DNA of 64,000 nucleotides, from assembly GCA_016178625.1 (NCBI GenBank), contig JACOSX010000017.1, positions 6,213 to 70,212 on the forward strand, given 5' to 3'. Below are positions 11,682-39,300 of the stretch, piece after piece (position 1 is the first letter of the stretch; each line of letters starts with the position of its first letter). Position numbers and translations under genes: made by a program. Source of the stretch: Ignavibacteria bacterium. GTDB lineage: Bacteria > Bacteroidota > Ignavibacteria > UBA10030 > SZUA-254. Below the pieces are notes generated by a model. It saw nothing but the letters and a program-made list of their open reading frames with translations, was not told the origin of the DNA and did not search any database.

Positions 11682-11684
11682 AAC

Positions 11685-13377: not shown

Positions 13378-13806
13378 GATGGGATCCTCACAAAGTTTTT
13401 AGATGGTAAAGATATTGAATTTTCTACTTCAATTCAAACTTCAATTCAAGCCGAAGTGAGGTTAGCAAACCACATTTTGATAAGCAAGAGCAATGCCGTA
13501 AACTCGATTGGTTCTGGACACACCCTCGCTGTTGCGAGGCCCTCAGCCCTCCGTAACAGACAGCCACGCTTCCTGCGGGGCTGTCTGCACCCCTGATCCG
13601 ATCGCACCCGGAACGTTCAACGCAGGTAAAACTGGATTGCATAGCGGTTGTGTGTTTGATCCGCTCAGCGACTAAGCCATGCGTTGTGGCGTTCCCTGCG
13701 ATGAGGTGTGCCATTGGGCTCCAACGAGGTTGGCAGGGGTGGAAATATCTTGAACGAACTAGGGATAGAAAGCAAAGGTTGTCGTTCGTTAGTTTGGATG
13801 TAGGGC

Positions 13807-14598
13807 TTAGAATAATTTGTACAAGTGTGACGGCTGGGGAATTTCTTTTATTTGAATGTGTTGGATTAATTTCTCAAGCTTATCCATGAAGGCGTGGAAA
13901 TCATCATGACGATCGACCGCGAAGCCCCAGTAAAACGATAGATTGTGTCCCAGAGAATAGGACTTGCCCTGCACGAGTTGAATATCCATCCAAGTGAGGT
14001 TAAACCAATTATCACGAAGCACCCCGTTTAACTGAATGATGGTTTCAGCATCGAGGTATCCTGCATAAGTACTGAGGGTAGAGATAAGCTCATTGTTAGC
14101 ACTCTGCGCTTGATCTGTAAGAAACTGTGAGACGTAGGGATATTCTAAGCCAAGATATGCCCGCCACGATGAATCGTATAAGGGCACTTGCGACCTCACG
14201 TCTATCTGGCCGAGACTGGAAATAAAAGATGAGTCCAATATCCTTTTGAAAAGGGCAATAAAGGTAAAACTGCTATCCCATTCAGAAGTGGACATGGGTT
14301 TGGTTCTGTTTACTGCATTAATCGAAAAAACGAGATGTCCAATTCCTTGGGCAATCTCATGATATGCGATTTGGCGGACTGTGTCTCTCTGTCTTTCTTG
14401 CCACTCGGAATGCCGGCGATTTTCATTGGAGGAAAGGACAGAAAGGATAGCAATAGTAACAGCAGTTAGAAGAGCAATTCTCCCCACTAGAGTAAGTCTT
14501 CTAAGACCCCTTTTTTGGGAGTTCCATGTATTACCTACAATCCCGACCACAGCAGTGACAAGGCCGGCCAAGTGCAAAAGCAAATCCCTATCAATCAA
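13807..14598 (-). CDS. hypothetical membrane-anchored protein (2 N-terminal TM helices plus a roughly 200-aa soluble domain)
   Basis: 263-aa ORF directly downstream of the TIR gene. Confidence 0.5.
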   Translation of the reverse strand: MIDRDLLLHLAGLVTAVVGIVGNTWNSQKRGLRRLTLVGRIALLTAVTIAILSVLSSNENRRHSEWQERQRDTVRQIAYHEIAQGIGHLVFSINAVNRTKPMSTSEWDSSFTFIALFKRILDSSFISSLGQIDVRSQVPLYDSSWRAYLGLEYPYVSQFLTDQAQSANNELISTLSTYAGYLDAETIIQLNGVLRDNWFNLTWMDIQLVQGKSYSLGHNLSFYWGFAVDRHDDFHAFMDKLEKLIQHIQIKEIPQPSHLYKLF

Positions 14599-14779
14599 AG
14601 CAGGCCCACGGGTGTACTACTATCTGCGTAGAGCCAAATTGGTTCAAGGATCCGATTGACTTGTTGGAAGTCAAACGTGTCGGCGTGAGTGAACATGAGC
14701 GCTTTCCGGATCCTCGAATGGTTGCGAACTTCCTTCAATGGTTTACGTCTGAATTGGTAGGGCATAAAGATTTACATCT

Positions 14780-15250
14780 TTAGCTCTTAGATGAGAGTAT
14801 AGCGATGCCAATGAGTACGCCAAGTGCTATCAGAAGTGCTCGGTCGTTCTCTTTCGCCATCCTGAGACGCTGAAGATAAGAGAGCAATGTCGATAAACTG
14901 CCAGGGGGATTGCCGAAGTCAAATGGGTTGTACTCTCGACCTTGTAGCATCGCTAAGCTTCGATCCGGTATACCAGGTTGAACGAGCGGAATGATCAACT
15001 TACCAGAGGCTTCTGCAAAACCGACTTCTTGTTGAACGTAAGGAGAGAGATGACTGGTAAGCGTGAGAAGAACTACAACCGCATCGGCGACTTGAATGGC
15101 TTGCTTTACCTTTCCAGCGAGTAAGGTTCCGGGCTGCGGATCGTGCTCAAACAGATATGTTTCTATCCCAATGCTTGTAGCATTAGACGCGATCCACTTA
15201 ACCCACTCTGAATCGCTGGCACTGTGACTGAGGAAAACTTTGTAACCCAT
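14780..15250 (-). CDS. TIR-domain protein with a C-terminal transmembrane anchor
   Basis: KVFLSHSASD N-terminal TIR motif and conserved Glu in YVQQEVGFA; C-terminal ALLIALGVLIGIAILSS helix; 156 aa. Confidence 0.7.
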   Translation of the reverse strand: MGYKVFLSHSASDSEWVKWIASNATSIGIETYLFEHDPQPGTLLAGKVKQAIQVADAVVVLLTLTSHLSPYVQQEVGFAEASGKLIIPLVQPGIPDRSLAMLQGREYNPFDFGNPPGSLSTLLSYLQRLRMAKENDRALLIALGVLIGIAILSSKS

Positions 15251-15433
15251 TCGATAAGGGGACCTGTTTTGTTTCGCTAATTATACGGATTGCGACCGCG
15301 AAACGCAAGTGGAGAAACTAGATTTTGAAAAACAGTGACGTTCGAGAGAGTGGGGAATTAGTGCTGTCGCACTCTTAGCAGACGGAAGGCGACATCGAGG
15401 AGTTTAGCTAACCTGTTGGAATGAGTTGAGTGT

Positions 15434-15793
15434 TCAGTACCTCCGTCCACCTGACCTCATAGAACCAAACATCCGCGGGAGAAATCTGGGTCGAAAAGGA
15501 CGATGAATAAAGACCCGCCGATGGAACGGCGTAACAAGCGATACACCGAACCGTCTGCACCCAAATGAAGGACGGTAAAATGGCGCCGGGTAAAAATAAG
15601 GTCTAGGGTAGTATGGCCCCCCACCACCGTAATAGTTATTAATGACCACTTGTTTCGAGGAGTCTTGATCTGTGGAATATTCCTTGGCTTGCGCCAACAT
15701 CACCCCTGAAGCAACGACCCAAATTGCCCCTGCGCTAAACACGAGCAGCATATTCCTTCTCACTTGCATTGCTCTGTTTAATTTGTATTGCAT
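15434..15793 (-). CDS. secreted Gly/Pro/Tyr-rich hypothetical protein
   Basis: Signal-peptide-like N-terminus (likely start at MQVRRNMLL); low-complexity YYGGGGPYYPRPYFYPAPFYRP. Confidence 0.4.
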   Translation of the reverse strand: MQYKLNRAMQVRRNMLLVFSAGAIWVVASGVMLAQAKEYSTDQDSSKQVVINNYYGGGGPYYPRPYFYPAPFYRPSFGCRRFGVSLVTPFHRRVFIHRPFRPRFLPRMFGSMRSGGRRY

Positions 15794-16101
15794 TGTTAGT
15801 CCGTCAAGAATTTCAACAAAAGTCGTGCCGAGAAAATTTTCGATTCATGAGGGGGGCAAAGCGGAATTAGACCAAACAATGCGTGTTAGAGAGAGGACAA
15901 CGCGGAGTGCTGTGTATCAAAAAGGGGACTTTTAGTTTATGGTAAAGTGTGCTGGCTAGACTCACTTGGCTGTCGAAAGATACGGAGAAAAGAAGATTTT
16001 TCAAGGATTGCACGAACCAAAAATGCTGGGGTTCGTTGACGTGAAGTAAGGGAGTGAACGTGTCGCACTATCAGACGGAAAGCGACAGGTAGCTTCGGAA
16101 T

Positions 16102-16452
16102 TCATACGCTCAGTACTTTGATGACAACACTGAGCAGCTCCTCTGGGTCATACGGCTTGGTGATGTAGTCATTCGCTCCAAGCTTTATGCACTCAAGCGC
16201 TGTTGAGATGTCCCGCATCACCGTGAGCATGATTACCCTCGGATGCTTATGAACTTTTTGCATCTCCTTAAGCACGGCCAAGCCATTCATCCGACGCATC
16301 TTCATATCGAGCAAAACAATATCGTAGTCAAGCTGCTTGATTTTCTCTAGGGCAACATCGCCATCATCTGCCACGTCCACCACAAAGTCTTCATTGGTGA
16401 ACTGCTCATAGAGTGACTGTCTCAATTCCACACTATCATCAACCACGAGCAT
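16102..16452 (-). CDS. stand-alone CheY-like response regulator receiver
   Basis: VVDDS...D...LLDMKM...K receiver signature; 116 aa. Confidence 0.8.
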   Translation of the reverse strand: MLVVDDSVELRQSLYEQFTNEDFVVDVADDGDVALEKIKQLDYDIVLLDMKMRRMNGLAVLKEMQKVHKHPRVIMLTVMRDISTALECIKLGANDYITKPYDPEELLSVVIKVLSV

Positions 16453-16522
16453 TTTTGGTTTTACCGTACGACTCTCCGATGGCGTAATGAAACAGAGCTA
16501 TCGTATACTGCCTTCGTTTGCC

Positions 16523-16888
16523 TCACGATGAAATCCGCTCGATTGTTGCCAGGAGGTCCTGGATGTCGTACGGTTTGCTGATAAAATCTTCGGCACCATA
16601 CTGCTTCGCTTCCATGGCTTGTTTGAGGTCAGCAAAAGCGGTCAGCATGATCACCTTCGTCTCGGGGCTTTGCTGCTTGATGAACCTCAGTACCTCCAAG
16701 CCGTCAACCATCGGCATGCGCACGTCGAGGATTGCAAGGTCAAAGTGTTCACCTTGGACGAGGGCTATGGCTTCACCACCACCGGCAGCGGTGGTGACCT
16801 CATAGCCAGCAGCCGAGAGCACGTCGCTCAAGGTACTCCTGATGTTCTCCTCATCATCAACTATGAGGAGGTGAAGGTTGTGAGCCAT
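16523..16888 (-). CDS. stand-alone CheY-like response regulator receiver
   Basis: LIVDDEENIR, ILDVRMP and KP receiver signature; 121 aa. Confidence 0.8.
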   Translation of the reverse strand: MAHNLHLLIVDDEENIRSTLSDVLSAAGYEVTTAAGGGEAIALVQGEHFDLAILDVRMPMVDGLEVLRFIKQQSPETKVIMLTAFADLKQAMEAKQYGAEDFISKPYDIQDLLATIERISS

Positions 16889-17053
16889 CCGTTATTGTTC
16901 GTACTGTCTAGTAAACGATTGGAGAGTGAACGGCATAAAAATACGAAAGAAAGTTACGAATTCCAAGCGATATTTTGTTGCAGACGTACTTTTAAATGGA
17001 AGGCAACAAGAAGGCTCGGAAATTTTCCGAGCCTTCTCCAGTTCATGGGAATA

Positions 17054-17206
17054 CCTCTACTTACCACAGGCTCGATAGTCTGGGCAGGCCGGGGTTCCGC
17101 ACAAGGGACAACCCCCTCGATCAACCTTGGGGCTTGTTCCGGAGAACCCTAACGCAGTGACCACCAGTGCAAGCACGGTAAGCAGCAGCGTGAGTTTCTG
17201 TTTCAT
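17054..17206 (-). CDS. small secreted Cys-rich peptide (50 aa), start overlaps the CsoR-family stop (ATGA)
   Basis: MKQKLTLLLTVLALVVTALGFSGTSPKVDRGGCPLCGTPACPDYRACGK; signal peptide plus CxxC and CxxxxxC; not in the ORF track. Confidence 0.4.
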
Positions 17207-17658
17207 CGTTTCATCTCCTTTCGAGGTTTTGGTTGTTGTACGGCGTTCAGTGAATTACGCAACCAGGCGAGCTCGTCGATGAGCCCCTTGAGATCCAACT
17301 TGGAAAATTCGTGACGTAAAAACTGCAATCGCTCAGCGTCATCGCAGTCCCCAGGACAGAGAGCGAGCCGTTCGGTGAGCACTTCAGCAAAATGTGCCTT
17401 GAGGTGGTCATTCAGGACGACGTAGAGAGCTTGATGGAGCCCTCGCTCAGCAGCTTTGAGTTGTCCATAGATTTCCTTCACTGACCGATCGCTGGTCATC
17501 ATTCGCTCAATGCCGTCGAGCTGACCTTTGACGAAGTGGATACGTTTGAGAAGCTCTCGTTTTTCTTTCTGACCAAGTGGCGGACGATCATTTTTCACGT
17601 TAGCAATGTAAGAACGTACAGGGGTGTTTGTCAAATTCTTAGGTGAAAGGCAACGCAC
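17203..17658 (-). CDS. CsoR/RcnR/FrmR family (DUF156) transcriptional regulator with atypical ligand residues and a C-terminal CPGDC
   Basis: LLKRIHFVKGQLDGIERMM helix typical of the family; the canonical Cys/His ligand positions are not conserved. Confidence 0.55.
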   Translation of the reverse strand: MRCLSPKNLTNTPVRSYIANVKNDRPPLGQKEKRELLKRIHFVKGQLDGIERMMTSDRSVKEIYGQLKAAERGLHQALYVVLNDHLKAHFAEVLTERLALCPGDCDDAERLQFLRHEFSKLDLKGLIDELAWLRNSLNAVQQPKPRKEMKR

Positions 17659-18192
17659 TCAGGCAGGGGCAACAGCGGGGGTAATTGATTTCACAAATGA
17701 GTTCACATCCCCGAGGCAGCATTCGCCCTTGGGATTCTTGATGTCGCAGGCGCAGTTGCCGGCTTTGACTTCTTTAGCAATCTGCAGGGAGGCTGTTGAT
17801 TTTCCTGTGCTGACGAGCTCTTGTTTGATTCGGGCGCGCGTCCAATCGAAGCAATAGCAGACGCTCACATCTTCGCCCTTGTCCTTCGCGAAAGCCTTAA
17901 CCCTAACATCATCGATGGTGAAATATGGAACACTTTCATTGGAGAAGTAGACAACTCTACAGTTCGAATCAGCGCAGTAATAGTATTGCACGTTTTGAAT
18001 TGAGCCAATTTTTTCGGGCTTCAAGAGATGCTCAAGGGTACGCTTTTGTACCTTCTTCGAGACCGTTCGTGAAACCGGACACTGGGCTCGTGCAGGGGCA
18101 GGAGTGGTATCCGTGACTAAACAACACTCATCACCGACTTTATGTTTATCTTCTGCAATTACCTCGATCGGTTGGACGCAGCAGTTATTCAT
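17659..18192 (-). CDS. vicinal-cysteine-rich hypothetical protein (CC, CxxC, CYC, CAC, CC motifs)
   Basis: Starts at MNNCCVQP (internal Met of track ORF 17659..18264), directly after the MerT-like stop. Confidence 0.45.
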   Translation of the reverse strand: MNNCCVQPIEVIAEDKHKVGDECCLVTDTTPAPARAQCPVSRTVSKKVQKRTLEHLLKPEKIGSIQNVQYYYCADSNCRVVYFSNESVPYFTIDDVRVKAFAKDKGEDVSVCYCFDWTRARIKQELVSTGKSTASLQIAKEVKAGNCACDIKNPKGECCLGDVNSFVKSITPAVAPA

Positions 18193-19247
18193 CGTTTTGT
18201 TCCTTTCGTTTGCGGAGAGCAACATTCGGACTTGCTTTTCTCTTTGCTCTCTTTGGAACAACATGCATCTTCATTTCCCGATGGTACACTTTCCCTTTTG
18301 AGTATTTGCAGATCGGGCATATTTCCTTTGCCAAGATACTTTTCACCAGCGGCAACGACATCCCGTTCAATCCGATGGTACAATGAATCATCAAGTTCGT
18401 TGAACGATTGGAGGGACAGGAAGCCGCGTTGGATTATCGCTTTGACATCTTCACGAAACGCCTGCTTGTCTTCGCCCGTTTTGAACTTAACATGTGGACT
18501 AACGCCCGTGAGAATCCGGTCAGCGATAACGCCCGCTTCCTCAATACTCAGCGCATCAACGTCTGAACCTTTATACCACATATCCTTCGCTTTGAAGTCC
18601 TCGAGAAGGGTAGTTCGATCCTGCTCACTTACTTGCTCAATCGGTAGTTCATGTCGAGAGAACACCGACTTGAGCACCGTTTGGTGTGCTGTGGCACTCG
18701 TGCCTTCATTCCATACCACAGCCATGACGGTTCCCCGCCGGTTCAGCCAAGCTCCTTTCACGGTTGAGTCTTTCATGAGATCAAGCAAGATGAACTTTGC
18801 CCTGCTGCCACAACCGATACTCGGCGCGGCATTACACACCAGAGGCACATCGAAGAAGCTAATGTCCCGGTCAAGGATCAGGGAACTGTTCTCGGAAGGC
18901 TTCGACGGTGAAGATGACGCTGTGAATCCAAAATATGGAAAGGCGATTGCGCCGGCCGCAACAAGAGTTGCGCACCACACGCCGATTTTGTTCCAGAGGC
19001 TGGAACTTTGAACCTTGCAGCTCCCGTCTTCACACTTCACCTCGCGTTTACGATAGGCGAAGTAGAACGCAAGACCGAGAAGAAGTACCGTAAGACCGAT
19101 CAGGTATGAGCGGTAAGGTTCAAGCATGGAAAACAGGCCGATACTACCAACCCCGATCAGTGCCAACGCCACGGGTCCGATACAACACAGGGACGCAATG
19201 ATTGCGGCAATTACTCCACCCGTGCTTGAGAAGGTTGCTTTACTCAT
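18189..19247 (-). CDS. MerT-like membrane transporter fused to a C-terminal domain ending in paired CC motifs
   Basis: First TM carries SLCCIGP (MerT-type vicinal Cys), the loop has CEDGSC, and three TM helices are followed by a soluble domain with CC...CC. Confidence 0.55.
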   Translation of the reverse strand: MSKATFSSTGGVIAAIIASLCCIGPVALALIGVGSIGLFSMLEPYRSYLIGLTVLLLGLAFYFAYRKREVKCEDGSCKVQSSSLWNKIGVWCATLVAAGAIAFPYFGFTASSSPSKPSENSSLILDRDISFFDVPLVCNAAPSIGCGSRAKFILLDLMKDSTVKGAWLNRRGTVMAVVWNEGTSATAHQTVLKSVFSRHELPIEQVSEQDRTTLLEDFKAKDMWYKGSDVDALSIEEAGVIADRILTGVSPHVKFKTGEDKQAFREDVKAIIQRGFLSLQSFNELDDSLYHRIERDVVAAGEKYLGKGNMPDLQILKRESVPSGNEDACCSKESKEKSKSECCSPQTKGTKR

Positions 19248-25354: not shown

Positions 25355-25517
25355 GTGAAATGATCTTATCGTTGTGATAGTGTAGAAAGATTTTAATTTA
25401 GAATCAAGATATTTTTCGTGATCGGGTAAGATTTATTTTGTCAACTCCCACGTTTTACCCGTTTCACCTTGGGGAGTGATGTAATGTACGCCACTCCCCA
25501 GCTTGACTAACGAGAAC

Positions 25518-26252
25518 TCAGTACACCTTTTTCTTCTTGATCTCCTCAGCCTGCTTCTTGACGAGCTTCATCTCCTCAGGATCGAGGTAGTTCCAGGCTG
25601 CCTGCATGACCTTGGTATAGATTGCTTCTAATTTAGGTCCGAGTACCTTGGTGATACCCGCGTCGTTGGGGTCTACACCGTTCGGTGGGGCCGGGTATTC
25701 CTTTTCACCTTCCCAGGAGACAACTTCGCGCGGAATGTCGATGCTCTTAAACCACATGCGCTCTTTCGACAGGCTCTCCGTCAGCGCGAGCGTGATCCTG
25801 CCACCAATGGCGGCTTGACCGTTGAGCGTGTAGCTGTCCGGTCCCAAGATGCCGACGTGCTTCCTCGCTTCGGGATTGACAATGTCCAGCCGTACGTCGA
25901 GCGTCGGTTGCAGGACGAGGTCGCTCCCCTTCTTGTCGGGAAAGGTGAGCTCGTCGTACGAACCGAAAGGACCCTTGACCGTGAAGCCGCGTGCGCTCAA
26001 GATCTGTTGGAAGTCCAAGCCCATGTTCTTGGAGAAATCGGTGAACGGCCAGACGGTTGTCCACGGTTGGTTCTCAGAGTACGAGGCATTGACAACGGCA
26101 AAGGTAACCTCGGCTGAGGCTACGGGTGCATTGGCCGTAGGTGTGAAGTGGAACGACGGCACGTAGGCCTGTTCGCTCTTGGTTGCCTTGGGCGCGCAGC
26201 CGATAAAACCGACCGTCAGGCAGAGGGTGGTAACGTAGAAGAAGTGCTTCAT
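25518..26252 (-). CDS. hypothetical lipoprotein
   Basis: Likely start MKHFFYVTTLCLTVGFIGC (lipobox); track ORF extends to 26324. Confidence 0.45.
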   Translation of the reverse strand: MKHFFYVTTLCLTVGFIGCAPKATKSEQAYVPSFHFTPTANAPVASAEVTFAVVNASYSENQPWTTVWPFTDFSKNMGLDFQQILSARGFTVKGPFGSYDELTFPDKKGSDLVLQPTLDVRLDIVNPEARKHVGILGPDSYTLNGQAAIGGRITLALTESLSKERMWFKSIDIPREVVSWEGEKEYPAPPNGVDPNDAGITKVLGPKLEAIYTKVMQAAWNYLDPEEMKLVKKQAEEIKKKKVY

Positions 26253-26307
26253 GATACAACCTCCTATGGAGTTGTGAATGATGGATAGTGAATTAGGTAG
26301 AAACGAA

Positions 26308-26342
26308 AAAACCTCTTCCAGCACAATGGCTGACAGAGGTTT
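26308..26342 (-). terminator. hairpin AAACCTCT/AGAGGTTT followed by a T-run on the minus strand
   Basis: rc reads stem-loop then TTTTTTCGTTTC; it lies upstream of the lipoprotein gene start, so it would end a minus-strand transcript coming from the recombinase upstream region. Confidence 0.4.
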
Positions 26343-26404
26343 CTATATTCACTGGCCGACTCACCAATAGAAACCCCGGTAGCAAGCGTGCTGGGGTCTA
26401 TCTG

Positions 26405-26532
26405 ATTGCCAAACCAGTATAGATCATCCCGTACGTATTTGCGTACCGGGGCACAATGTCGTGCCCCAGCGCGTTGCCAACGTACGGGGAGAACCCTATA
26501 AAATAAAAAACGATCTACTACTGGTTTGGCAA
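26405..26532. repeat. nested palindromic element: 14-bp outer IR (TTGCCAAACCAGTA / TACTGGTTTGGCAA) enclosing GTACG/CGTAC and GGGGCAC/GTGCCCC hairpins
   Basis: Read directly from sequence, about 110 bp upstream of the serine recombinase start. Confidence 0.6.
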
Positions 26533-26644
26533 AAATAAGGTAGGAAGAAATTCGCAATGAGTCAAGTTTTTTCTTGGTGAATGAAACTTTTATTCTTACC
26601 TTTGATGAGTATCATTTCCACAAATTGTCCTGAGGAGTATTCAG

Positions 26645-28138
26645 ATGGAGAAAGAAAAATCGGTCGGTATTTGGATTAGAGTCTCGACAGAAGATCAAGC
26701 CAGAGGTGAAAGCCCGGAGCATCACGAGAAGCGCGCCCGCTACTACGCGGAATCGAAGGGATGGTCTATCAAAGAAGTCTATCGTCTTGAGGCGGTTAGT
26801 GGTAAGTCGGTGATGGAACATCCCGAGACGAAACGGATGCTGGCTGACGTACGATCGCACAAGATTACAGGAATTATCTTTTCCAAGTTGGCACGATTAG
26901 CTCGTAACACAAGAGAGCTTCTGGACTTCGCCGATATCTTTCGTGAATGTGACGCAGACCTAGTAAGTTTGCAAGAATCGATTGACACTTCAACCCCAGC
27001 TGGACGGCTCTTCTATACTATGATTGCTGCTATGGCGCAGTGGGAGCGAGAAGAAATAGCGGAACGTGTAGCAGCGTCAGTGCCGATACGTGCCAAGCTT
27101 GGCAAACCCCTCGGAGGTGCTGCTCCGTTTGGATACCAATGGGTAGACAAAAAACTGCTGATTGATCCAAAGGAAGCTCCGGTACGAAAACGAGTCTACG
27201 AACTATTCCTTGAACATCGACGCAAGAGAACGGTCGCCCGTCTACTGAACGAATCAGGATATCGCACCCGGAATGGTGGCCGGTTCTCGGATACCACAGT
27301 GGATCGTCTCTTGCGTGATCCAGTAGCCAAAGGGAAACGCCGAATGAACTATACGAAGAGCTTGGGACAGAAGAAAAAATGGATCATAAAGCCTGAGGAC
27401 GAATGGGTACATATAAATGTTGAGCCGATTGTGAGCGATGAGGTATGGGCACACTGCAACCAAATCCTGGGTGAACAATACCAAAAGCAGAATCGGCGCC
27501 CGGCTGAACACCTTTTTACCGGTATAGTGCTCTGTCACTGCGGTAACAAAATGTACGTCCCACACAAATCGCTGAAGTACACGTGCTACAAATGCCACAA
27601 TAAAATCCCCACCTCTGACTTGGAAGGGATATACCATGAGCAACTGAAAACGTTCTTTTTTTCAAATGACGAAATTTCAACTTACCTGAATAAGGCTGAT
27701 GAACTTATAAATGATCGGCAAAATCTATTCGTTTCACTTGAGGAGGAAGCCAAGAGGCTAAAGCGAGAGATGGACAAGTTGGTCCGACTACACCTTGATG
27801 GAGAGATGCCTAAAGAGGGATTCGGGAACCACTACCGGCCGCTGGAAGACAGGCTGAAACAAATAGAGAATCAACTCCCCGAACTGCAGGGTGAGATCGA
27901 TTACCTCAAAATCCAGTATCTATCAAGCGACGAGGTACTTAGCGAGGCTAAGGATCTACATCAGCGATGGCCTACACTCGAACTTTCTGAAAAAAGAAGT
28001 ATCGTAGAAACAATCACCCAAAAAATAACTATTAGCAATGACGAGGTTTCAATCAATCTATCGTACATGCCATCCTCGGCAGAAATGGCAACAGAAATGC
28101 AACACAACGTCAGGGATTCATTGCACACACCAGCATGA
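26645..28138 (+). CDS. large serine recombinase (resolvase/invertase catalytic domain, recombinase domain, zinc ribbon, coiled coil)
   Basis: [11 protein letters not shown] catalytic-Ser motif, CHCGNKMY...CYKCHNK zinc ribbon; 497 aa; 3' end overlaps the comM remnant. Confidence 0.85.
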
Positions 28139-29171
28139 AGTTGGCTGGATAATCGATCGACATTTTCGACCGGCTGATCGTAACGTGAGCATCCTCCAGA
28201 GGTTGACGAAGAACTTCGAGGACGTTGCGGGCGAATTCCGGAAGCTCATCGAGAAATAACACGCCATGGTAAGAAAGAGAAATCTCGCCCGGTCGAGGCA
28301 CTGTTCCACCGCCGACAAGAGCGCTATCGGAGATTGTATGATGCGGAGAGCGGAATGGACGCGTTGAGATCAGCGCTGAGTCGGGCGGCAACAGACCGGC
28401 GACAGAATGAATCTTGGTTGTCTCAATCGCCTCGTCAAATGTGAGAGGGGGGAGAATGGTTGGCAAGCGTTTGGCAAGCATAGTTTTCCCGGACCCGGGC
28501 GGACCGATCATGATGATGTTATGTCCCCCTGCAGCAGCTACCTCCAGAGCGCGCTTCACATTCTCCTGTCCTTTGACATCGTCAAAGTCGATTGGATATC
28601 GCTGATCCTGATTGAACACTTCACGGAGATCAACACGAAACGGCTTGAGCATTGTGTGTTCGCCATTGAGGAAGGAGACCGTTTCAACAAGAGACTCCAT
28701 CGGATAGACTTCAAGTTCTCCGACCATCGCCGCTTCCTTCGCGTTCTCTCGTGGAACGATCATGCCGCGGATGCCATTCTTTCTTACCTCAACCGCGATC
28801 GGCAGGGTTCCATGCACGGGGCGGAGAGTGCCGTCGAGAGCGAGTTCCCCGAGCATGACGAAGTCTTTCAATATGTCGGGAAGTACTTGGCCTGTCGCCG
28901 CGAGAATACCAACGGCGATCGGGAGATCGAACGCCGAGCCTTCTTTCTTAATGTCGGCAGGCGCGAGGTTCACCGTGATGCGTTGACCCGGAGGGAATCG
29001 AAAGCCTGTTGTTTTAATGGCTGCATAGACGCGATCGCGGCTCTCCTTCACGGCATTATCCGGCAATCCAACAACATTAAACGCATTGCTGGATGCCACA
29101 ATGTGTGTCTCTACCTGAATGAGATGTGCCTTGATGCCTATTGTTGAAGCGCTGAGTGCGTGAGAAAACAT
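28110..29171 (-). pseudogene. comM: comM/yifB Mg-chelatase-like AAA+ gene, truncated after the ...LVCAMNP sensor motif (C-terminal third missing)
   Basis: N-terminal [21 protein letters not shown], Walker A GPPGSGKT, Walker [10 protein letters not shown]; ends at AMNP, where full-length ComM continues with a Cys-rich region. Confidence 0.7.
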
Positions 29172-29237
29172 AGGAACAATTCCTCCCGGAAGTTCTTTCA
29201 ACATACGGAACGGATGAATGAACTGCAACTCGAAAAA

Positions 29238-29298: not shown

Positions 29299-32200
29299 TT
29301 ACTTCATGAACAGCATCTTCCTCACGCTCATGAATCGCTGGCCCGGCGTACCTTCCTCATCGTCACCGATACTCTCGGCTGTGAGATGATAGAAGTACAC
29401 TCCCGAAGAAAGGCTGCCCGCATCGAACAGCACTTCCTGTGTTCCATCGTCCACTAACTCGTGGTTCAGTAATCGTGCAACTTCCTGACCGAGCACATTG
29501 TAAATCTTCAGGGTGACAAATGCCCGTTCAGGGAGATAGAACTGAATCGTCGTCGTTGGGTTGAACGGATTGGGATAGTTCTGCTCAAGCGTGAAGACAT
29601 CAGGTTGCTCTTCAATAACCTGACGGGGAGTATTCTTCGGCGATGTTCCACCTATCCGTATGAGGAATGGAACTTCGGAGAGCGCCTTCGTGCCGGTGAG
29701 AGCGAGTTTGTTGGCAACCATCCATGTGGCTGTGTCTTGCGCCGTCAGAGGCAGCGCACCGGCGAATGCAGCATTGATGGTTGTTATGATTGCGTCAAGA
29801 TCGGCATACTCCTGATAGGAGACACCTTCCCAGTTTGTGAGCATCGAGTCTGCCATCTCTGCAATCATCCCGACTGTACATTCGGGTCCATCGACGAACC
29901 ACGGTGAGCCGCCGGCTGGTGGTAAGTACACCAGATCACCAAAACCCGTCGGAGTTTTCCTGAATTCGCTGGCAGCGATATTGATCTTTAGCGCAAGAAG
30001 ATTCGCAAGGAAATGATTGTTATGCTTGATTGCCGGTACGCTCTTTTGTCGTTTCAAGATCGGCTTGCCTTTGACATCGAAGTCAAGACCACGAGGTGTT
30101 CCGGTGTGTGGAACGCCTTTGGTGTTGAATGTCTTGAAGACGTCGGACTGCTTCGCCGGATGCAAGTATCCCTTGATCTTCTGACCGCTATTCAGTTGAT
30201 TCGGGAGACCCGCAATCAACATACCACCTTGTCGCAAGACTTCGTCGATGACGTTGGCAGTGTTCGGCAGGGGGACAGGTTTGCCGGGCTTCGGCCGCTT
30301 GACCGGTTTTGCTTGATCGCTTTGCGCAAGCTGTTCCGGTGTGAACGTACGGAATCTCACAGTTGTATCCGGCTTGAAGACATTCAGGAATAATATCGTC
30401 GCCCCGCCTGTTGAATCGGCGATATCAACGATCACTGAGTCTGCATTGTCCGAACGTAGAGTATCGTTGACATACACGCGGTCAAATAGGTAGTTTGCTA
30501 CCGGGAAACGCCGGATAGCATACTTCCCTTTGTAGCAAATCGGAAGAGCTACATTGTCCGTCAGAATTCCAGAGAATACCGATTGGAATGGTGTGGTTGG
30601 ATCACTCTGGTACGAAATGCTGATGGGCCAAGGATAACAAATCGGCAGGATAATTGACGGTGTCAGCACGGGAACCTGAGGCACGCCAACCGTATCGTGA
30701 CTCAACCAAATATGGATCCATTTGAATCGGTTGCCGAAATCGAGACCCATGATTGACTGGCTGTCTTTAACAGTCACACAATAATAGGGTGGACTGATTG
30801 GCCAGGTCTGCTGCCAGCCTGGTCTGTGCTCTTCGTACACACAATAGCATCCGCAAGGTATATTCATGAAGCAATAGAAGCCGGCAGAGTCTGTTAAGGT
30901 GCATGCTACTGTGTCTTTACCGGGATATCCATCGGAATTGCACTTTACAAGACAGATCCTCCAATTCGGGATTCCGAACTCGGTGCCGTAGTTGAACTTG
31001 TGGTTGCCGTTTTTGTCGTTCCATTTCCTGCCATAGATGCGTCCCTTACAACTGTCGCAGTCCTTGAGTGTCAGATGATACACGTTCGACGTATCTTTAC
31101 AGAAGGAAGGACCTGGACCTGTGAGGATGAGCGAATAGTTTCCGCTTCCGACTGGTGTCAGTGTATCATTCGTGCCGTTGGTTGGTGAAATTGGATTTCC
31201 ATTGAACAACCATTGATAGGTATAGTATCCAATGTAAGGACCAACTGGGCCGGGAATTTTTACGGTATCGCATAGCGTATCGCATCCGAAAGGAAACAGC
31301 GTAAAATCCGGATCAGTGGATAACGTTACAGTGATGCTTGCGCTGCTTGTGCATCCGTTTGGATCAGTATAGGTAACCGTGTAGACTCCCGAAGTGTGGA
31401 CGGTGATGCTCTGGCTCGTCGCACCGGTATTCCAGAGATTGTTTGTCGCATACGAGCTGGTCAATGTCACGGAATCGCCCTTGCAAAACGTCGTTGGACC
31501 GCTGGCAGTAATTACAGGAGGTAGCGGAACACCATACACGTTGATTGTAATTGGTGCAGATGTCGCAAAACATCCGGTGCTCGGGTCTGTTACCGTTACA
31601 GAGAATGTATACGCGCCAGGGGTGTTGGAAAAGAAGAAGAGCGTCTGATTCGTTGAGGCGTCGGACCAGAGGTAGGTGTATGGACCAGCCGGTGCGGAAA
31701 GTATGACGAAACCACTACCGCAGATAGTCTGAGAACCATTCACAGTAATCACCGCTGGCGGCAACGGGTTTACAATCACAACGACAGGTTGGGTTGTGCA
31801 CTTACAACCGGTAGCCGGATCCGTGACAATGACAGTGTAGCTGCCCGGTTGCGTCGCAACGTAAGATTGGGAGGTTGCGCCTGAGATATTTGTTCCATTG
31901 AGCAGCCACTGGTACGCGCTGCCGGATGTTGCCGTAAGTACTACTGATCCTCCTGCGCAGAATGGCGGAGGATTGGAAGGTGAGATCGAGCACGTGTTAC
32001 TCGGCGCATAGATCGTGATCGTGTGTGTGACCGTATCTGCACAGCCGGTAGCATCCTTGACAATCAGCGTTACGGTATACGTTCCGGCTGCACTCCACGC
32101 GTGAGACGTATTTTGCAGTGCCGAGGTTGCCCCGTCTCCGAAATCCCACGACCATGAGAATGCGGGTCCTGCAGACATCGGAATATCATCGCCCAGGCAT

Positions 32201-35190
32201 GCTGTCGCAGGAAGTGAGAATGCGGCTGATGGTGGCGATGTAATGGTTACCGGAATCGTGATCGTCGACGTGCAGCTTCCGTTCGATATTGTGAGAGTCA
32301 CGTTATGGATGCCGGGCGAAGAGAATGTGACCGTCGGTGGATTCTGTCCGATAAATGATGAAGGGGTGCCGCCGAGGAATGTCCACGACCATGAGGTGAT
32401 ACTCGTGCCCGACACATACGTCGAGATGTCGGTGAAATTCACCGAACCACATGTTGTGACGAAGCTGAAGTTCGCGGCTATGGGTATCAGAATAGTCTTT
32501 GTTGTGCAGACTTGACAAGTTCCAGAAGGTACGGCTGGAACCGAACCACACACTGTTACCTGGTAATAGCCCGCCTGTGCGTAGACGTGAGTGGGACTCG
32601 ACCCGCTTCCAGTTCCGCCATCACCAAACGTCCAACTGAAACCACTCACGTTCGATGAGATTTCATTGAACTGGATGTTGTTGCACTCACCGCTGATGTT
32701 ACTCGTCGTAAAATCGAGCGTGTAAGATTGTGGAGTGCAGGGTGTTGGAGGAGGGCACGGTCCCGCCGTGATCGTGATAACGTTTGATGTATCCTTGCAT
32801 CCGTTGGCATCAGTGACGATGACGGTATAGCTTCCCGTCTGGGTTGCAGTGTATGTAGCGGATGTCGCGCTGGGGATGTTAACCCCATTTAATTGCCATT
32901 GATATGAATATCCAGTGCCTACAAGTGCATATAATGTGGTATTGATGGTCGGGGTCGGCGGGGTGCAGAAATTTATCGGATCCGGTGTAGAAATGCTCGC
33001 GGTTGGGCCCGGTGTGTGCGGAACATCGATGCACACTGAGGCGGTACAACCTGCTGCAGTCGTGACCGTCACGCAATACTGTCCGCTCGATGTCACGATG
33101 ATGGACTGCGTGTTGGCGCCATTCGACCAAGCATAGGAGGCGAAACTTGGGTTCACCGTGAGGATAACCGAGCCACCCGGATCGCAAACATGTCCCGTCA
33201 TCGAGATCGTCGGTGTTGGTTTGGGATTGATTGTCACGGGGAAGTTATATGTCATGCCGCAAACGGAAAGATGAACGACAGCAGTTCCGCCCGGTCCGTG
33301 CCAAAGCACGGAGATTGTACTCGTGCCTTGTCCGCCTGTAATAGATCCCGCTGATGACAAATTACCAAACCCATCTTCAATCGTCCACACATAGTTGATA
33401 TTGGGATTTGGAGATCCAACCGTATATGCGACGGTTTGATCCATGCAGACGGTACTTGGTCCGCTGATCGATGAGATTGCCAGGACGTTGACAGGCAGAC
33501 TGATCGGCGGTGACTTACAGAATGGTGGAGTGGTCATTACCTGTTGCACGGAGATCGTTCCCGATCCAGTCCACTGCACGGTGACACTCGCTCCGGTATT
33601 CGAACCAATGATCGTGCCGCCTGTGACTGACCAGAGATATGTGAATCCAGTACCAGAAGGAGTTACGGTATATTGGTATGTGAAACTCCCTCCCGTACAC
33701 ACTGTCTGTGGGCCGACGATAGCAACCGCGGGAGGTACCGCCACCACTGTTACTACTTGTGACGCGCTCGCGTTGCACCATGCATTTGGATTCACCGGTG
33801 TTGCTGTGACGGTTTGGGTGCCTGCGCTTGTCCAGACAATTGTTCCTGACGTTGTGCCGTTACCTGCAATGACCGTTCCGCCAGTTGCTGACCAGTTCGC
33901 GTTGTCGTTCGCGTAGAAAGTAGAGGTGTCTCCTACACAGAAAGGACCTGGTTGTCCGGCCATAATAAACTCTGGTTTCACCTTCACTTTGATGGTGTCG
34001 GCGCCACCACAACCAAGCAGAATATTATTCCAAGTAGCGATGATGAAGCAATTACCCGGGGTAGTTGGCCAGTTGATTTGTATCGTATAGTTATTTGGAT
34101 TTGTGATGATTGTGCCGCAAGTTGTCGTCCATGTGTAGTATGTACCGGGCCACAAGGGGAGCGTGTAAATAGAAGTTGATCCGGGACAGACAGTCGTTGG
34201 GCCACTGATCGGGCCATTGTTATTGATAATCGGAACGATCACCGTTGTTGTATCCTGACATACGTTTGTGCATCCGGTGACGTAGAGTGAAATGGTCCCT
34301 TGCGGACCCGAGCCCCATTGTACACAGATACTTTGAGTGTTCCCCGGAGGAAGGATCGTTCCACCATTGACAATCCAATGGTACACAGGAGTTGTGCAGC
34401 CTGGTGGCAACGTTGCGGAGTAACAAGCCTTGGCACCTGCGCAGACGGTTGCCGGACATTCAATGCCCGGTCCCTCGAGATTACTCACGGTGATGGTATG
34501 TGTAACGGAATCTGAACAGCCGCACTTGTTGTACGCTACCAGCGTGACCGTGTATGTGCCGGCGACCAAGTATGAATTTGAAGGATTGACCTGCGTGGAA
34601 GTGTTGCCGTCGCCGAAGTTCCAAAAATATGAGATGGCATTGATCGATTGGTTGATAAAGTTGACGACTTGCTTCTTACAGACGCTACTTGGTGCGCTGA
34701 ATGCGGCGATAGGGGAGTTGATGATTTTCACGCACCGCTCGTCTTTGCCGACACAGTGGTTCGTATCAGTCTCAACGACGGTGATCTGCCCTGAACCCGC
34801 CGATCCCCAGAGCACGGTAACGCAGTTGCTCGTCGAACTGCCGATGATCGTTCCCCCAGAGACAGTCCACACATACGTGTTGCCCAGATGAAGCGCGACG
34901 CAATATGTCGCATATTGGTTCTCACAGGCGATGAGGCAGCCACCTTTGTGGTCTGGTCCCCCCACAGTACCTTGCGTCGTATCGAGACAACTCGAATCAG
35001 CCTGGAACGACGAGACGATTGTCGGATGCGGTGGTATGCTATTGGGAGGACAATTCTGGCTCAATCCTCCGGCAACGCACAAAAGTATCAGAATGAACGC
35101 GCTGAACAGTGCCCAACTTGTTTTCATATTGGTTCCTTTCTTGAAATTGGACCGTGAAAAAATGTCGATTAGTGTGTTCGTCTTAATCAT
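29299..35190 (-). CDS. 1963-aa secreted PKD/Ig-like repeat protein with a T9SS C-terminal sorting domain
   Basis: Signal peptide, many PKD-like units (WNFGDGNTS...[11 protein letters not shown]), C-terminal [14 protein letters not shown]...GVYFYHL...KMLFMK. Confidence 0.8.
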
Positions 35191-35213
35191 TGTAGGAGGT
35201 CTATTTCCCGATT

Positions 35214-35507
35214 ACGATTCTCTTTGTATCCACAAAACATTTTCCGCCCGATTCGACTTCCAGCCGGTAGAAATACACTCCATCAGCAAAGCCACGCGTT
35301 GTGAAATCAACGACATGTATACCCGTTTCATACAAGGTGTGATCGATCAGCATCGAGATCTCCAGACCATCTTTGTCGAACAGAGTGAGTGTAACATACG
35401 CCTCGAAAGGCAGATTGAACTCTATACCCGATGGCTCAAAAGGATTCGGATACGTAGGTCGCGATGTAAATTCAGTCTTGATAAGTGATACCCCTATAAG
35501 GTCAGTT
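35214..35507 (-). pseudogene. orphan T9SS C-terminal sorting-domain fragment without a start codon
   Basis: Translates to ...TYPNPFEPSGIEFNLPFEAYVTLTLFDKDGLEI...GVYFYRLEVESGGKCFVDTKRIVIGK*, open from an upstream stop with no Met before the domain. Confidence 0.55.
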
Positions 35508-35688
35508 TTAAACTGTTACCATAATACACGGTAATTGAAGAAAGGTCAATCGTGGAATCCATGATTTTGGGGTTTAAAATTCATGACTTCAGAAGATATG
35601 GGTGGAAGGAAGAAGGTAGGAGGGGAGTATACTCTGTCTGCTTCCGGCAGTCAGAGTCAAATGATCTCAGTTCACCCGCCGTAGTGGA

Positions 35689-36339
35689 TTATTCCAGCGA
35701 GGTCAGACCTTCTCTGATAGCGTACTTCGTCAGCTCGGCGACTGTGAAGAGGTTGAGTTTTTCCATGATGTGTTGCCGATGTGTGTCGATTGTAGGGATA
35801 CTGACATGCAGGATGGTGGCGATCTCTTTTGTCGATGTTCCCTCGGCGATGAGTTGCAATATCTCACGCTCTTTCGGCGTGAGGGGAGCCGACTCTGATG
35901 ACTTTGCCGATGAGAGGTGACGCAGGTAATCCTGAATCACAACGCCGGCAACGTCAGGACTTACGAAGATCTTATTCGATAAGACTGTTTGGATTGCTTG
36001 GTGCAATTCATCGAGGGCACAGTGCTTCAATAAATATCCTGATGCACCTGCATTAAGCATCTCCGCGACGTATCGCTTGTCGGAGTGCATTGAGAGTGCA
36101 ATCACCTTGATGTTTGGCAGTTCGCTGAGGATCTGACGTGTCGCCTCGATGCCATTGAGATCCGGCATTGTGATATCGATAATTACGATGTCAGGATGTA
36201 GCGTTTTCGCTAATTCAACACTTGTTCTTCCATTTTCTGCCTGACCCACGACGGTCATATGGAGTTCGTTCTCAAGGATACTCCGGAGTCCTTCGCGAAC
36301 AATCTTGTGGTCGTCTGCCAAGAGAACACGCGTATTCAT
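35689..36339 (-). CDS. NarL/FixJ-type response regulator (receiver plus LuxR HTH)
   Basis: LLADDHKIVREG...IIDITMPDLNG receiver; LTPKEREILQLIAEGTSTKEIA LuxR HTH. Confidence 0.85.
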   Translation of the reverse strand: MNTRVLLADDHKIVREGLRSILENELHMTVVGQAENGRTSVELAKTLHPDIVIIDITMPDLNGIEATRQILSELPNIKVIALSMHSDKRYVAEMLNAGASGYLLKHCALDELHQAIQTVLSNKIFVSPDVAGVVIQDYLRHLSSAKSSESAPLTPKEREILQLIAEGTSTKEIATILHVSIPTIDTHRQHIMEKLNLFTVAELTKYAIREGLTSLE

Positions 36340-39300
36340 GAATGAATATCCCTTCTCGTATCTGGTTGCGGGTTCGATCTGTCGGTACTGACTCCATCAA
36401 CGTTCAGCGGAGCTTTTATCGTCACAGTCGTTCCTGCATGGGGCCATGATGAGATCTCAACTTTTCCACCGAGATAGGCGAGTCGCTCGCGGATATTGAA
36501 TAAGCCGAACCCACCACCGGCATCTGTGCTATTTGTTTGTGCCGAGCTGTCGAACCCTATGCCGTTGTCCTGAATATCTATTCTTATATTCGTATTCTCC
36601 TTCAAAACGCCCACGGTGACTCGTTGGGCATTAGCGTGCTTGATCACGTTCATAAATACCTCTCGCACTGCCTGGAACAAGACGATGCGTAGTTCGTCTA
36701 CGACCGGTTTCGCCTGTTTGTCATCAATAAATCGGAATTCGATCTTGTGCTGTTGTTGCATTTGCTCGCTCAGCCATTCGATAGCTGCCTCGAGGCTAAG
36801 CTCATAAAGGATAGGTGGACAGAGCTCGAACGTCAATGATTGTGTATCATAAATCGATTGCTCGACCAGTTCGCGCAACTCCTGAAGTAAGGTAGTGCCG
36901 TTTCCTAAGGAAACAGACCGTTGTAATGAGCGAATCTTTATTTTGCAGAGGGCAAGTGTTTGTCCGATTACATCATGAAGATATGATGCCATTTGCCGAC
37001 GTTCGCGTTCCTCGGTCAAAGAAAGTTCAGAAGCGAGTAGCCGTAGTTTCTCTTCGGCTTGTTTTCTCTCGGTGATATCCAGTGCTGTTCCGAGGCGCAC
37101 CGGGATACCTTGGAACTTAATCCATCCCGAAGTGAAATCGACCCACCGGATATCGCCCCGTTTGGTCGTGATTTTGTATTCGTACCGACTGGGGACCGAC
37201 GTGTTGCCTGAACGGTCCATCTCGCGTACTCGCAACAACTCTTGGTCAGACGGATGAACGATATCGAAAAGATCTTTACCGAGGAGCTCTGCTTTCGAAT
37301 AACCGGTCAGGATTTCTGCACCCGAGTTCACGAAGAGAAGTTTCGATTTGTGGTACATCCAAATCGCCGTTGGAGTCATCTCCGCTACAGTCCGGAATTT
37401 TTCCTCACTCTTCCGAAGCTCAAGATCGTGCTGTCTTTTCCGGCTTAGAATCGTAAAACCAAGAACAATCACGATGAGTGTGAGGGCTCCCGTTGGGATG
37501 AGAAAGAAGGGACGGAGATGCAGAGGCAATGGGATCGAGAATGAACCTCGAGCACCTTCTTCATCGAAATTGCCGAACAATCCTTTTGCCTGCACTTGAT
37601 AAACATAGTCTCCCGGCATGAGGTCGCGAAGTATGATTTCATATTTCTTCTCCCACGCGGACCAGGATCCGTCGTTAATTCTTATTCGTGTGAGAACGTC
37701 TGAGGGTGAAAGCTCACCCAAATACGCGAATGCTTTCCATCGCAATACAACATTCTTGCCTTCCATGAGCGGCTTGTCGAGTAAAATTCTCGGGTTTGGT
37801 GTCGTGCTCTCATCGCGGTGCAGGATCGCGACTCCTTTTCCCATTGTTCCAACGTACACTTCGTCTTTCAATGGGAGGACGGGCCACAATGAAAGTTGCC
37901 GTAATCCAGATTTCTCATCAAAAGTAGACCAAACCCCGTGATCGTAGCAAGAAAGTCCACCCCTTGTCGTGATCCAGAGTTTTCCAAAGTCATCTGCCTT
38001 TAAGTCCCATATCTTATCGTTGATCAAGCCGTCTGCAGTTGTCAGGTAACGAACAGAATCGTTTGGATCAATGAAGGCAAGCCCATTACGTTCGTTACGG
38101 TCACCGAACCAAACGGTGTTCTTGTCATCAATGTCAAGCGTAAAAACTCTCAAGGAGTGTAATCCCTGGTTCGTCGTCCAGTGTGTCCACTCGCCGTTCC
38201 GCCATCGACTCAGTCCCCCGAACGTGCCGAACCACCGTGTGCCGTCCTTCCCTTCTGCGAATGAATAGACTCTGCCGTTGATCAATCCTTCATCTGTTCC
38301 CCATCGAGTGAAATGACCCTTTTCCAAAACATAAGCACCCGGCTGTTTGTCTTCGAGAGGTGGATAGTACTTTCCGATGCCGAGGAACCATAATCTTCCC
38401 TTACGGTCTTTTCGAATCTTGTGGATTCTGATTCCGCCGGGATCGTCGCTCACATTGTAATGCTTCCACTGCGATCCGTCCCAGCGATACGCTCCAGAGA
38501 AGGATGATCCGCTTGAAACCCACATATTACCGTCAGCGTCTTCATTCAGACCAGTGATCACATACAAGGGTTTACGATTCATCGCGTTGATCATTTCAAC
38601 CGTTCCATTGCTGTGATGGACTTCTATCCCATCACTTGTACCTACCCATAAGCTGCCATCGTGAGCTTTGAAAAGCTCATTAACAGAGTTTCGAAGATCG
38701 GGGGACTCATGTCTCCAATAGGTCCAGCGCGACGAAGATCGTTTGTACAGAAAGAGTCCGTGCTCCGTTGCAATCCACAGATCACCGTTGGCCCGAATTG
38801 TTACGGTGAGAATCTCTCGGATTTGTGATTGTCCGAGGATGAGGGGGTGCCATATACCTTCACGTCGAATTCGCAGTTCGTCGGATTGATAAACAGCGAT
38901 CGCCTCATCATTCGGTCCGATATCAAGTGACTTGATATTGTCAACCTTCTCGCTGCGGTCGTGAAGTAGGGGAGAGTTCTTCTGCCATTCCCACAAGCCT
39001 CTCTTCTCGGACGGGAAATTAACCCATGCGATCCCACTTCCTCGTGCGTTTTCCACCACGCCCATTACTCCGATGATTGTGGAATCTGCTTTCATCTTGC
39101 ATTTCCACGACCCATCTTCCCGCTTGTATAATCCATCAACAAAGCTTGCCCAGATTCCTCCCCCGAGAGTTCTCCAGAGGCTCATGCTTTTTCCTTCGGT
39201 GAGAGCGCTCCCTGGCTCAAAAGGTTTCAGGTGGTTGTTCTCATATTGAAAGAGGCTGGCGTTTTCTTGGGCGAGGATTGATCGTCCTGAAAAGGGAATT

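Follow-up and report, generated by a model that had tools for sequence, protein, structure and literature searches.

A palindromic element beside a large serine recombinase gene in Ignavibacteria: a probable leader RNA of a lipoprotein gene

The window described here, by which the whole stretch of DNA that was analysed is meant, comprises 64,000 nucleotides from an uncultured Ignavibacteria bacterium (GenBank assembly GCA_016178625.1, contig JACOSX010000017.1, positions 6,213 to 70,212 of the forward strand). At 26406-26532 it contains a long palindrome situated between two genes that point away from each other, a large serine recombinase gene on the plus strand and an HpaA-like lipoprotein gene on the minus strand. 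The palindrome, a conserved region behind it and an intrinsic terminator constitute a "module" that probably acts as the 5' leader of the lipoprotein transcript.

Layout of the locus

The features between and including the two genes are the following.

25518..26252, minus strand: lipoprotein gene, 244 aa, with lipobox ...GFIGC (from translation; HpaA/NLBH-like fold)
26253..26305, minus strand: 5' untranslated region (5'UTR), G-poor (CUAAUUCAC...), with a ribosome-binding site GGAGG at 26264-26260
26306..26346, minus strand: intrinsic terminator, stem 26346/26342-26329 with 26322-26309, then six U (26311-26306)
26347..26405, minus strand: linker or switch region, highly conserved in sequence in five copies, with two alternative folds
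26406..26532, minus strand: 5' rod domain, defined by fold and covariation, with elements P1, P1b, P2 and P4
26537..26565, minus strand: promoter-like box of the leader, TTGACT (26565-26560), a 17-nt spacer and TACCTT (26542-26537)
26574..26603, plus strand: putative divergent promoter of the recombinase gene, TTGGTG-N17-TACCTT(TG), with TACCTT at 26597-26602
26645..28138, plus strand: large serine recombinase, 497 aa, with Resolvase, Recombinase and Zn_ribbon_recom domains (phrog_95 integrase)

A sequence-only reading of the window had pointed out the palindromes, and most of its description holds. The outer inverted repeat TTGCCAAACCAGTA/TACTGGTTTGGCAA is a perfect 14-bp repeat (26406-26419 / 26519-26532), although its start had been placed one position too early, at 26405. 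It is followed, after one bulged base, by a 6-bp stem TAGATC/GATCTA, and nested inside it are CCCGTACGT/ACGTACGGG (26428-36 / 26480-88) and the hairpin GGGGCAC-aatgtc-GTGCCCC. Both inner hairpins and the further nested pairing that had been described are present in the window sequence, as is the terminator-like hairpin with its T-run on the minus strand (26309-26322 / 26329-26342, six U). The local hairpin GTACG-tatttg-CGTAC is possible in the window and impossible in its homologues; the pairing conserved at this place is the long-range helix P2. When the 351-nt region (26300-26650) was folded as the minus strand, an energy of -131.4 kcal/mol was obtained versus -87.2 +/- 5.3 kcal/mol for dinucleotide shuffles (z -8.4, 0/100 shuffles), and the plus strand of the same region gave z -7.1. 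The palindromic structure is thus real and not a chance feature.

In the minus sense, the 5' rod domain is built from the following elements.

26530-26519 with 26419-26408: P1, the perfect repeat reaching to 26532/26406
26518: bulged G between P1 and P1b
26517-26512 with 26425-26420: P1b
26511-26489: asymmetric U-rich internal loop (UUUUUUAUUUU...)
26488-26480 with 26436-26428: P2
26470-26446: P4 hairpin (CUGGGGC...GCCCCGG)

The plus strand inside the rod (26470-26503) carries a sigma-70-like box, TTGCCA-N17-TATAAA, directed at the recombinase gene. Its A/T-rich "-10" is the complement of the conserved U-rich loop and is found in all five copies of the module, while the -35 and the spacing are not conserved among them. 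A counter-transcript from this box is possible but unsupported.

Five copies of the module and conservation of the rod

Five independent copies of the module were found, one in the window and four at loci designated L088, L101, L103 and L104, all from related Ignavibacteria islands. The copy in L088 (13597-13860, minus strand) was reached through a truncated comM protein, and those in L101 (647-911), L103 (2208-2469) and L104 (2128-2393) through homologues of the lipoprotein. L103 and L104 are arranged as in the window, with truncated comM, the recombinase gene and then the divergent module with the HpaA-like lipoprotein gene. The module of L101 comes after a RuvC-like gene. That of L088 is separated from the recombinase gene by 1 kb and has the opposite orientation relative to it, with a non-homologous PEGA-domain lipoprotein gene downstream. 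Pairwise identity among the five copies is ~75-80% in the conserved parts. The ~1.4 kb upstream of the leader promoter in L088 (13861-15297) contains no open reading frame longer than 48 aa and holds another strong hairpin (14093-14105 / 14147-14159).

All five copies share one unbranched rod fold, which comprises P1 (11-12 bp), one bulged base, P1b (6 bp) and P2 (8-10 bp). The internal loop below P2 has ~23 nt on its 5' side, including UUUUUUAUUUU, and 2-3 nt on its 3' side. Between P2 and P4 there is a variable internal loop, and the end loop of P4 varies as well. Across the 127-nt rod 96.7% of the cells are paired and both sides have changed in 14 of 37 pairs, e.g. GCCAAACC/GGUUUGGC versus GGCUGAUC/GAUCAGCC, or CCCGUACGU versus CCACAGCC versus CCACACAAU. 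None of 500 shuffles was as good on any measure, and sliding the partners by 1-3 columns left at most 3 double-changed pairs. A structure-blind MAFFT alignment and a model-fitted alignment gave identical numbers; five related sequences are too few for them to be taken as probabilities, yet the pattern is clear. The small number of P2 cells left unpaired results from shifts in the alignment, L103 and L088 having perfect P2 helices 1-2 columns off. What the rod conserves is pairing rather than sequence.

The strand on which this pairing matters can be read from its wobble pairs. Read in the minus (RNA) sense, the rod has 14 G·U cells versus 1 A·C cell, among them a U·G pair that is invariant in all five copies. 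The terminator follows the same rule: 98.6% of its cells are paired in the five copies, and its one-sided changes lead to G·U in the minus sense only. A leader peptide or small protein was rejected as an explanation, since each reading frame is interrupted in at least one of the five copies; a 9-codon AUG...UAG frame common to three of them is lost in L103. Covariation, strand-specific G·U pairs, and a promoter-like box and terminator conserved in the five copies together make it very probable that the region encodes a structured RNA on the minus strand.

Related lipoprotein loci without the module show where it belongs. In L097 and L100 a 78%-identical lipoprotein gene occurs in a tyrosine-integrase element and lacks the module. 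L097 has TTGACA-N17-TATCTT, ~20 nt and then the same CUAAUUCAC... 5'UTR, which is conserved in both loci. Since the promoter in leaderless L097 directly precedes this UTR, the module sits between promoter and UTR.

This presence in some lipoprotein loci and absence from L097 and L100 is the behaviour of an insertion or a deletion, and would suit a selfish or neutral palindromic insertion without function between promoter and gene, of the type of a miniature inverted-repeat transposable element (MITE) or a repetitive extragenic palindrome (REP). A MITE-like insertion had also been suggested by the sequence-only reading. No second copy was found in the 64-kb window by BLAST, nhmmer or covariance model, and nhmmer together with the covariance model over 1.1 Mb of loci returned nothing beyond the five orthologous copies. 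The first 80 recombinase loci gave no BLAST match to the region, and in the closest relative of the recombinase (L001, 90% aa identity) the upstream region is unrelated. Pattern scans for the outer arms found no match in viral contigs and four in JGI metagenome contigs, all of them unrelated tandem repeats of the CCAAACCAGTAACCATATAA type. Two further motif scans of viral contigs produced nothing or chance matches in coding DNA, relatives of the recombinase were not found in viral contigs, and blastn against plasmid and phage collections gave no match. As no other copies were found in the window, the loci and the collections scanned, the MITE suggestion was dropped. The module is single-copy at each locus, and its borders show neither terminal inverted repeats nor a target duplication. 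Moreover, compensatory evolution across ~75%-identical sequences argues for selection on the fold, and a functionless insertion is accordingly very improbable.

Searches for known RNA families were likewise negative. Across the whole window no match reached the gathering score of any of the 4227 families of Rfam 15, and over 26253-26570 none was obtained even at E<=10. The homologues gave unrelated sub-threshold matches only, none shared between them, so that no described family was matched by the covariance search, and a tRNA/tmRNA scan of the window found none.

Terminator, alternative folds and the downstream gene

The promoter-like box stands directly in front of the rod. In all five copies TTGAC(T/A)-N17-TA(C/A)CTT ends 6-8 nt before the first base of P1 while the spacer sequences vary; the expected transcription start in the window, ~G26530, is the first base of P1 itself. 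The -35 is perfect or near-perfect, and the weak -10 retains T1, A2 and T6 and resembles the -10 of the leaderless L097 promoter. A simple sigma-70 scan missed this box because its -10 matches at only 3/6 positions. A further inverted repeat, I2 (26537-26550 / 26589-26602), is explained by the leader -10 box and the TACCTT(TG) box directed at the recombinase, which face opposite ways. A similar TTACCTTT(C/G)AT precedes the recombinase gene in L103.

The other end of the module is the terminator. Its stem in the homologues is a perfect 13-17 bp, and the window terminator was missed by a simple consensus scanner because of a 2x2 internal loop in the stem. The sequence-only reading had correctly stated that no minus-strand gene ends at this hairpin, but had overlooked the minus-strand gene that starts beyond it, the lipoprotein ATG at 26252 being 54 nt downstream of the U-run. 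In each of the five copies a lipoprotein gene starts ~50 nt behind the U-run, and in the window the 54 nt from U-run to ATG show no evident promoter of their own. The lipoprotein was modelled by AlphaFold (predicted local distance difference test, pLDDT, 90.9), and Foldseek matches Helicobacter pylori HpaA (8t8d, E 1e-10, template-modelling score 0.58-0.73). Its structural matches belong to the Helicobacter HpaA or neuraminyllactose-binding-haemagglutinin (NLBH) family. Pfam gives a weak match only (PF05211), and there was no match in PHROGs or NCBIfam.

Between rod and terminator lies the part of the module that is most conserved in sequence. It can form two alternative folds from the following minus-strand segments.

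26398-26393 with 26377-26372: hairpin Pa, GACCCC with GGGGUU, accompanied in the same region by a small hairpin Pb
26377-26367: antiterminator 5' strand GGGGUUUCUAU
26346-26336: terminator 5' arm AUAGAAACCUC, which is the partner of the antiterminator
26394-26388: CCAGCAC, which can pair with GUGCUGG of the terminator 3' arm

In state T, Pa (GACCCC...GGGGUU), the small Pb and the terminator are formed. In state AT, GGGGUUUCUAU pairs with AUAGAAACCUC, and AGACC-CCAGCAC pairs with GUGCUGG...GGUUU of the terminator 3' arm. Each of the five copies retains both states, with 92% of the cells paired for T and 96% for AT. Covariation is uninformative here because the sequences barely vary, and the one-sided changes that do occur are all wobble-compatible in the minus sense. 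Constrained folding gave the following energies.

Window: state T -38.9, state AT -39.2 kcal/mol
L088: state T -39.7, state AT -40.6 kcal/mol
L101: state T -41.2, state AT -37.3 kcal/mol
L103: state T -33.1, state AT -32.5 kcal/mol
L104: state T -33.2, state AT -38.2 kcal/mol

The region is thus energetically bistable, the terminator-free fold differing from the terminator fold by -5.0 to +3.9 kcal/mol in the five copies. When the upstream part alone was dinucleotide-shuffled, the best terminator-free fold became +7.6 to +12 kcal/mol worse, and no copy had more than 1 of 200 shuffles that reached the native energy gap. The rod may also communicate with this platform. In every one of the five copies GUGCUGGGG, which is the 5' strand of P4 together with flanking bases, shows complementarity of 7-9 bp to CCCCAGCAC, the 5' strand of Pa, and L088 has one double change there from G-C to A-U; by its sequence a strand exchange between P4 and Pa could link the two.

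These features are the ones expected of an attenuation leader. An intrinsic terminator stands between promoter-like box and start codon of a co-oriented gene in five of five copies, and a mutually exclusive alternative pairing sequesters the terminator arms. The palindrome is therefore interpreted, with a probability of roughly 0.58, as the 5' domain of a ~225-nt non-coding leader (~26530 to ~26306) through which the lipoprotein gene would be controlled by transcription attenuation; the genes behind it would probably be controlled as well. In the proposed sequence of events, transcription would start at the TTGACT-N17-TACCTT promoter, on the first base of the rod hairpin P1-P1b-P2-P4 with its U-rich asymmetric loop, and would then proceed through the conserved switch region with its two folds. 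In the "OFF" state Pa and the intrinsic terminator would form and a short RNA would be released. In the "ON" state GGGGUUUCUAU would pair with the 5' terminator arm and CCAGCAC with the 3' arm, so that the polymerase could read into the 5'UTR and the lipoprotein gene, whose expression would depend on this read-through. The choice between the folds could be made by a small molecule, by an RNA-binding protein of island or host that acts on the rod or P4, or by another RNA.

The sequence-only reading had proposed a structured RNA of roughly 250 to 300 nt transcribed divergently from the recombinase gene. Its minus-strand structured RNA ending at the hairpin and U-run stands, with a shorter length of ~225 nt. 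Its suggestion of an antisense RNA is not supported for the recombinase, as the two transcription units are back to back, where an overlap is not expected, and the module in L088 is 1 kb away in the opposite relative orientation.

The promoter-like box and the strong terminator would equally bound a discrete ~225-nt RNA. This could be a free-standing small RNA that acts in trans and has a promoter and terminator of its own; the lipoprotein gene would then be expressed only through incidental read-through or by a promoter that escaped recognition. Hfq-type small RNAs typically have a U-rich loop and end in a hairpin with a U-tail; both are present here, and the structure covaries. Such a small RNA would, however, leave unexplained why all five copies keep a gene start at the same short distance, L088 with its exchanged gene included, and why the gap to the ATG offers no evident promoter. 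Nor was any target complementarity found to the 5' region of the recombinase, direct repeats being at most 8-10 nt. Furthermore, the upstream sequence is specifically complementary to both terminator arms, which is a requirement of an attenuator and is unneeded by a plain small RNA. A small RNA is therefore rather unlikely. The cis-regulatory leader is the better reading, since the lipoprotein gene starts so close behind the terminator in every copy and an antiterminator is available.

Several points weigh against the leader. Judged against E. coli, the leader has a weak -10 hexamer, and the scanners listed neither the promoter nor the terminator. Neither switch fold shows a double-sided pair change in the five copies, and there are only five sequences, all from one lineage. 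Transcription and switching are predicted from the sequence, and a free-standing small RNA could also account for a strong terminator and a promoter of its own. In riboswitches the sensor is usually the most sequence-conserved part, whereas here the stems vary and the platform is conserved.

Judged by its sequence, the attenuation leader would be riboswitch-like and a new family within a known kind, outside every described Rfam family. The literature search on Ignavibacteria riboswitches and comM-targeting serine recombinases found nothing relevant, and the gene context (an HpaA-like lipoprotein) suggests no ligand. A more specific and quite speculative idea is that the leader is a new riboswitch class, or the target of an island-encoded RNA-binding antiterminator, that couples a surface HpaA-like lipoprotein to a metabolite or to the state of the comM island. 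The lipoprotein would then possibly be an exclusion or adhesion factor, and strand exchange may connect the invariant P4 stem (CUGGGGC/GCCCCGG) with the platform. If the attenuation leader is real, it provides a new, experimentally tractable structured leader RNA from the poorly studied phylum Ignavibacteria, and adds to mobile DNA, where few cis-regulatory RNAs are known. Attenuation control of a surface-lipoprotein gene beside a recombinase would hint that the island regulates a change of the host cell surface. Because of its clear covariation and clean two-state platform, the leader is a good candidate for the discovery of a ligand or partner.

Two observations concern the region behind the lipoprotein gene. 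A hairpin GGGGAGTG-gcgtacattacat-CACTCCCC at 25470-25500 (minus strand) directly follows its stop codon and has no clear U-run; it may mark the end of the first cistron or serve in processing. An independent assembly of the locus (L081, Logan SRR12113389 contig) breaks at window position ~25521, just past the lipoprotein gene, which may reflect strain variation or a repeat there.

The surrounding island and comparison with known systems

The recombinase gene lies at the right end of a >28-kb genomic island inserted in comM. The interrupted host gene is the following.

28110..29228, minus strand: truncated comM/yifB, first ~353 of 513 codons, with the island/chromosome junction at ~28111

Alignment of a full-length comM relative is confined to residues 1-361, and the window lacks the C-terminal third. 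Aligning the locus with L001, the closest relative, and with the intact comM of L086 located the junction. Synteny of the window with its relatives holds on the right of the junction and is absent over at least 28 kb on the left. Homology to comM ends inside the 3' end of the recombinase gene; with the junction at ~28111 the recombinase frame extends ~26 nt into comM-derived DNA. The last ~9 recombinase codons and the stop codon (28111-28138) are host-derived, as they are in L001, and excision would therefore give a different C-terminus. The left part of the island (242-19247) includes a LexA-like S24 repressor adjoining an IrrE/M78 peptidase, a primase-like gene, DUF932, a PD-(D/E)XK nuclease, SymE (toxin-like), RadC, a TIR-domain protein, UbiA and CsoR/CopZ/MerT-like metal genes. 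A coupling-protein/HerA-like ATPase (8339-9664) is conserved near many of these recombinases.

The position of the module in this island bears on two DNA-level explanations. The first is a duplex DNA site for the serine recombinase or an accessory protein, i.e. an att-like site, an invertible promoter or an autoregulation operator; a recombination or accessory site had been the further suggestion of the sequence-only reading. The module adjoins the recombinase gene in three of five copies, and its opposite relative orientation in L088 could suggest a past inversion. An attachment site (attL/attR) was rejected, because the real comM junction is at ~28111 and the palindrome lies 1.6 kb inside the island. 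An invertible promoter was rejected as well: the promoter is outside the repeat, so inverting the 99-bp interior, which is itself palindromic, would not switch it. Protein sites conserve sequence, whereas the stems here, including the nested inner ones, change with their pairing kept, and strand-asymmetric G·U pairs are meaningless for duplex DNA. A duplex site is thus extremely improbable, and the suggestion was given up.

The second explanation is a single-stranded DNA structure of the mobile island, e.g. an origin of transfer, a single-strand replication origin or a single-stranded DNA promoter. The coupling-protein/HerA-like ATPase, DUF932, the primase-like gene and RadC would be in keeping with it, and the covariation, with G·T in place of G·U wobble, also fits a hairpin in one DNA strand. 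Origins of transfer usually adjoin a relaxase gene (10.64898/2026.01.13.699239), however, and no relaxase is nearby. In addition, conservation extends to promoter-like box, terminator, antiterminator and gene start, which all point the same way, and the module follows the RuvC-like gene in L101 and lies elsewhere within the island in L088. A role as single-stranded DNA is accordingly improbable. A retron non-coding RNA was rejected since no reverse transcriptase is nearby.

The recombinase family extends far beyond this island. Its 362 matches are 60-70% identical across phyla (Bacteroidota, Acidobacteriota, Planctomycetota, Patescibacteria, Armatimonadota, Desulfobacterota and others), and in at least 50 of 80 fetched loci (L001-L080) the recombinase stands next to comM, truncated at residue ~352-358. 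These loci point to one family of islands, spread over many bacterial phyla, that targets comM and always cuts at the same codon; its highly conserved recombinase family also deserves cataloguing. One Armatimonadetes metagenome-assembled genome (L012) has a full-length comM-like gene (residues 1-511) and a truncated comM next to the recombinase (4409-5938, 7466-8530), so that the island there may carry a replacement copy of the disrupted gene. A second variable region lies directly beside the island: the ~10.7 kb between comM and a TPR gene (29299-39707) is absent in L001, L086 and L088, and includes a 1963-aa PKD protein sorted by the type IX secretion system (T9SS), a response regulator and a 1123-aa protein.

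Several known systems resemble the module in part. An imperfect palindrome of ~130 bp with a bulged base, whose structure is conserved over its sequence and which lies beside a recombinase and a swappable gene, recalls integron attC sites, MITEs and REPs. It differs from attC sites, which were rejected as an explanation, in that there is no array and no tyrosine integrase, the RYYYAAC/GTTRRRY core is absent from its arms, the element is single and the neighbour is a large serine recombinase. Unlike all three, it is single-copy and lies upstream of a gene together with a promoter-like box and a terminator.

The put RNA of HK022 and the EAR element act on the polymerase and need no antiterminator helix. 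The module shares with them that a structured RNA of a mobile element follows closely on a promoter and precedes a terminator, but it encodes a specific antiterminator and has no sequence or Rfam similarity to them. Antisense-RNA-driven attenuation on mobile elements is known from the leaders of pT181 and of repR in pIP501/pAMbeta1, and from prgQ/Anti-Q of pCF10. As in these, a mobile-element leader would choose between terminator and read-through, and its long hairpins could be kissing partners. In contrast to these, no conserved promoter for a counter-transcript was found inside the leader, the full TTGCCA-N17-TATAAA box occurring in the window only, and the regulated gene is a lipoprotein gene instead of a replication or transfer function.

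The closest overall likeness is to riboswitches, T-box leaders and the leaders controlled by PyrR or TRAP. The module matches none of the 4227 families of Rfam 15, and its sensor candidate is a 127-nt unbranched rod with variable stems, the platform being the most conserved part, which sets it apart from those leaders. It has in common with them the same order of promoter, structured 5' domain, antiterminator/terminator, ribosome-binding site and gene, and, as in other terminator/antiterminator leaders, its two folds are of near-equal energy.

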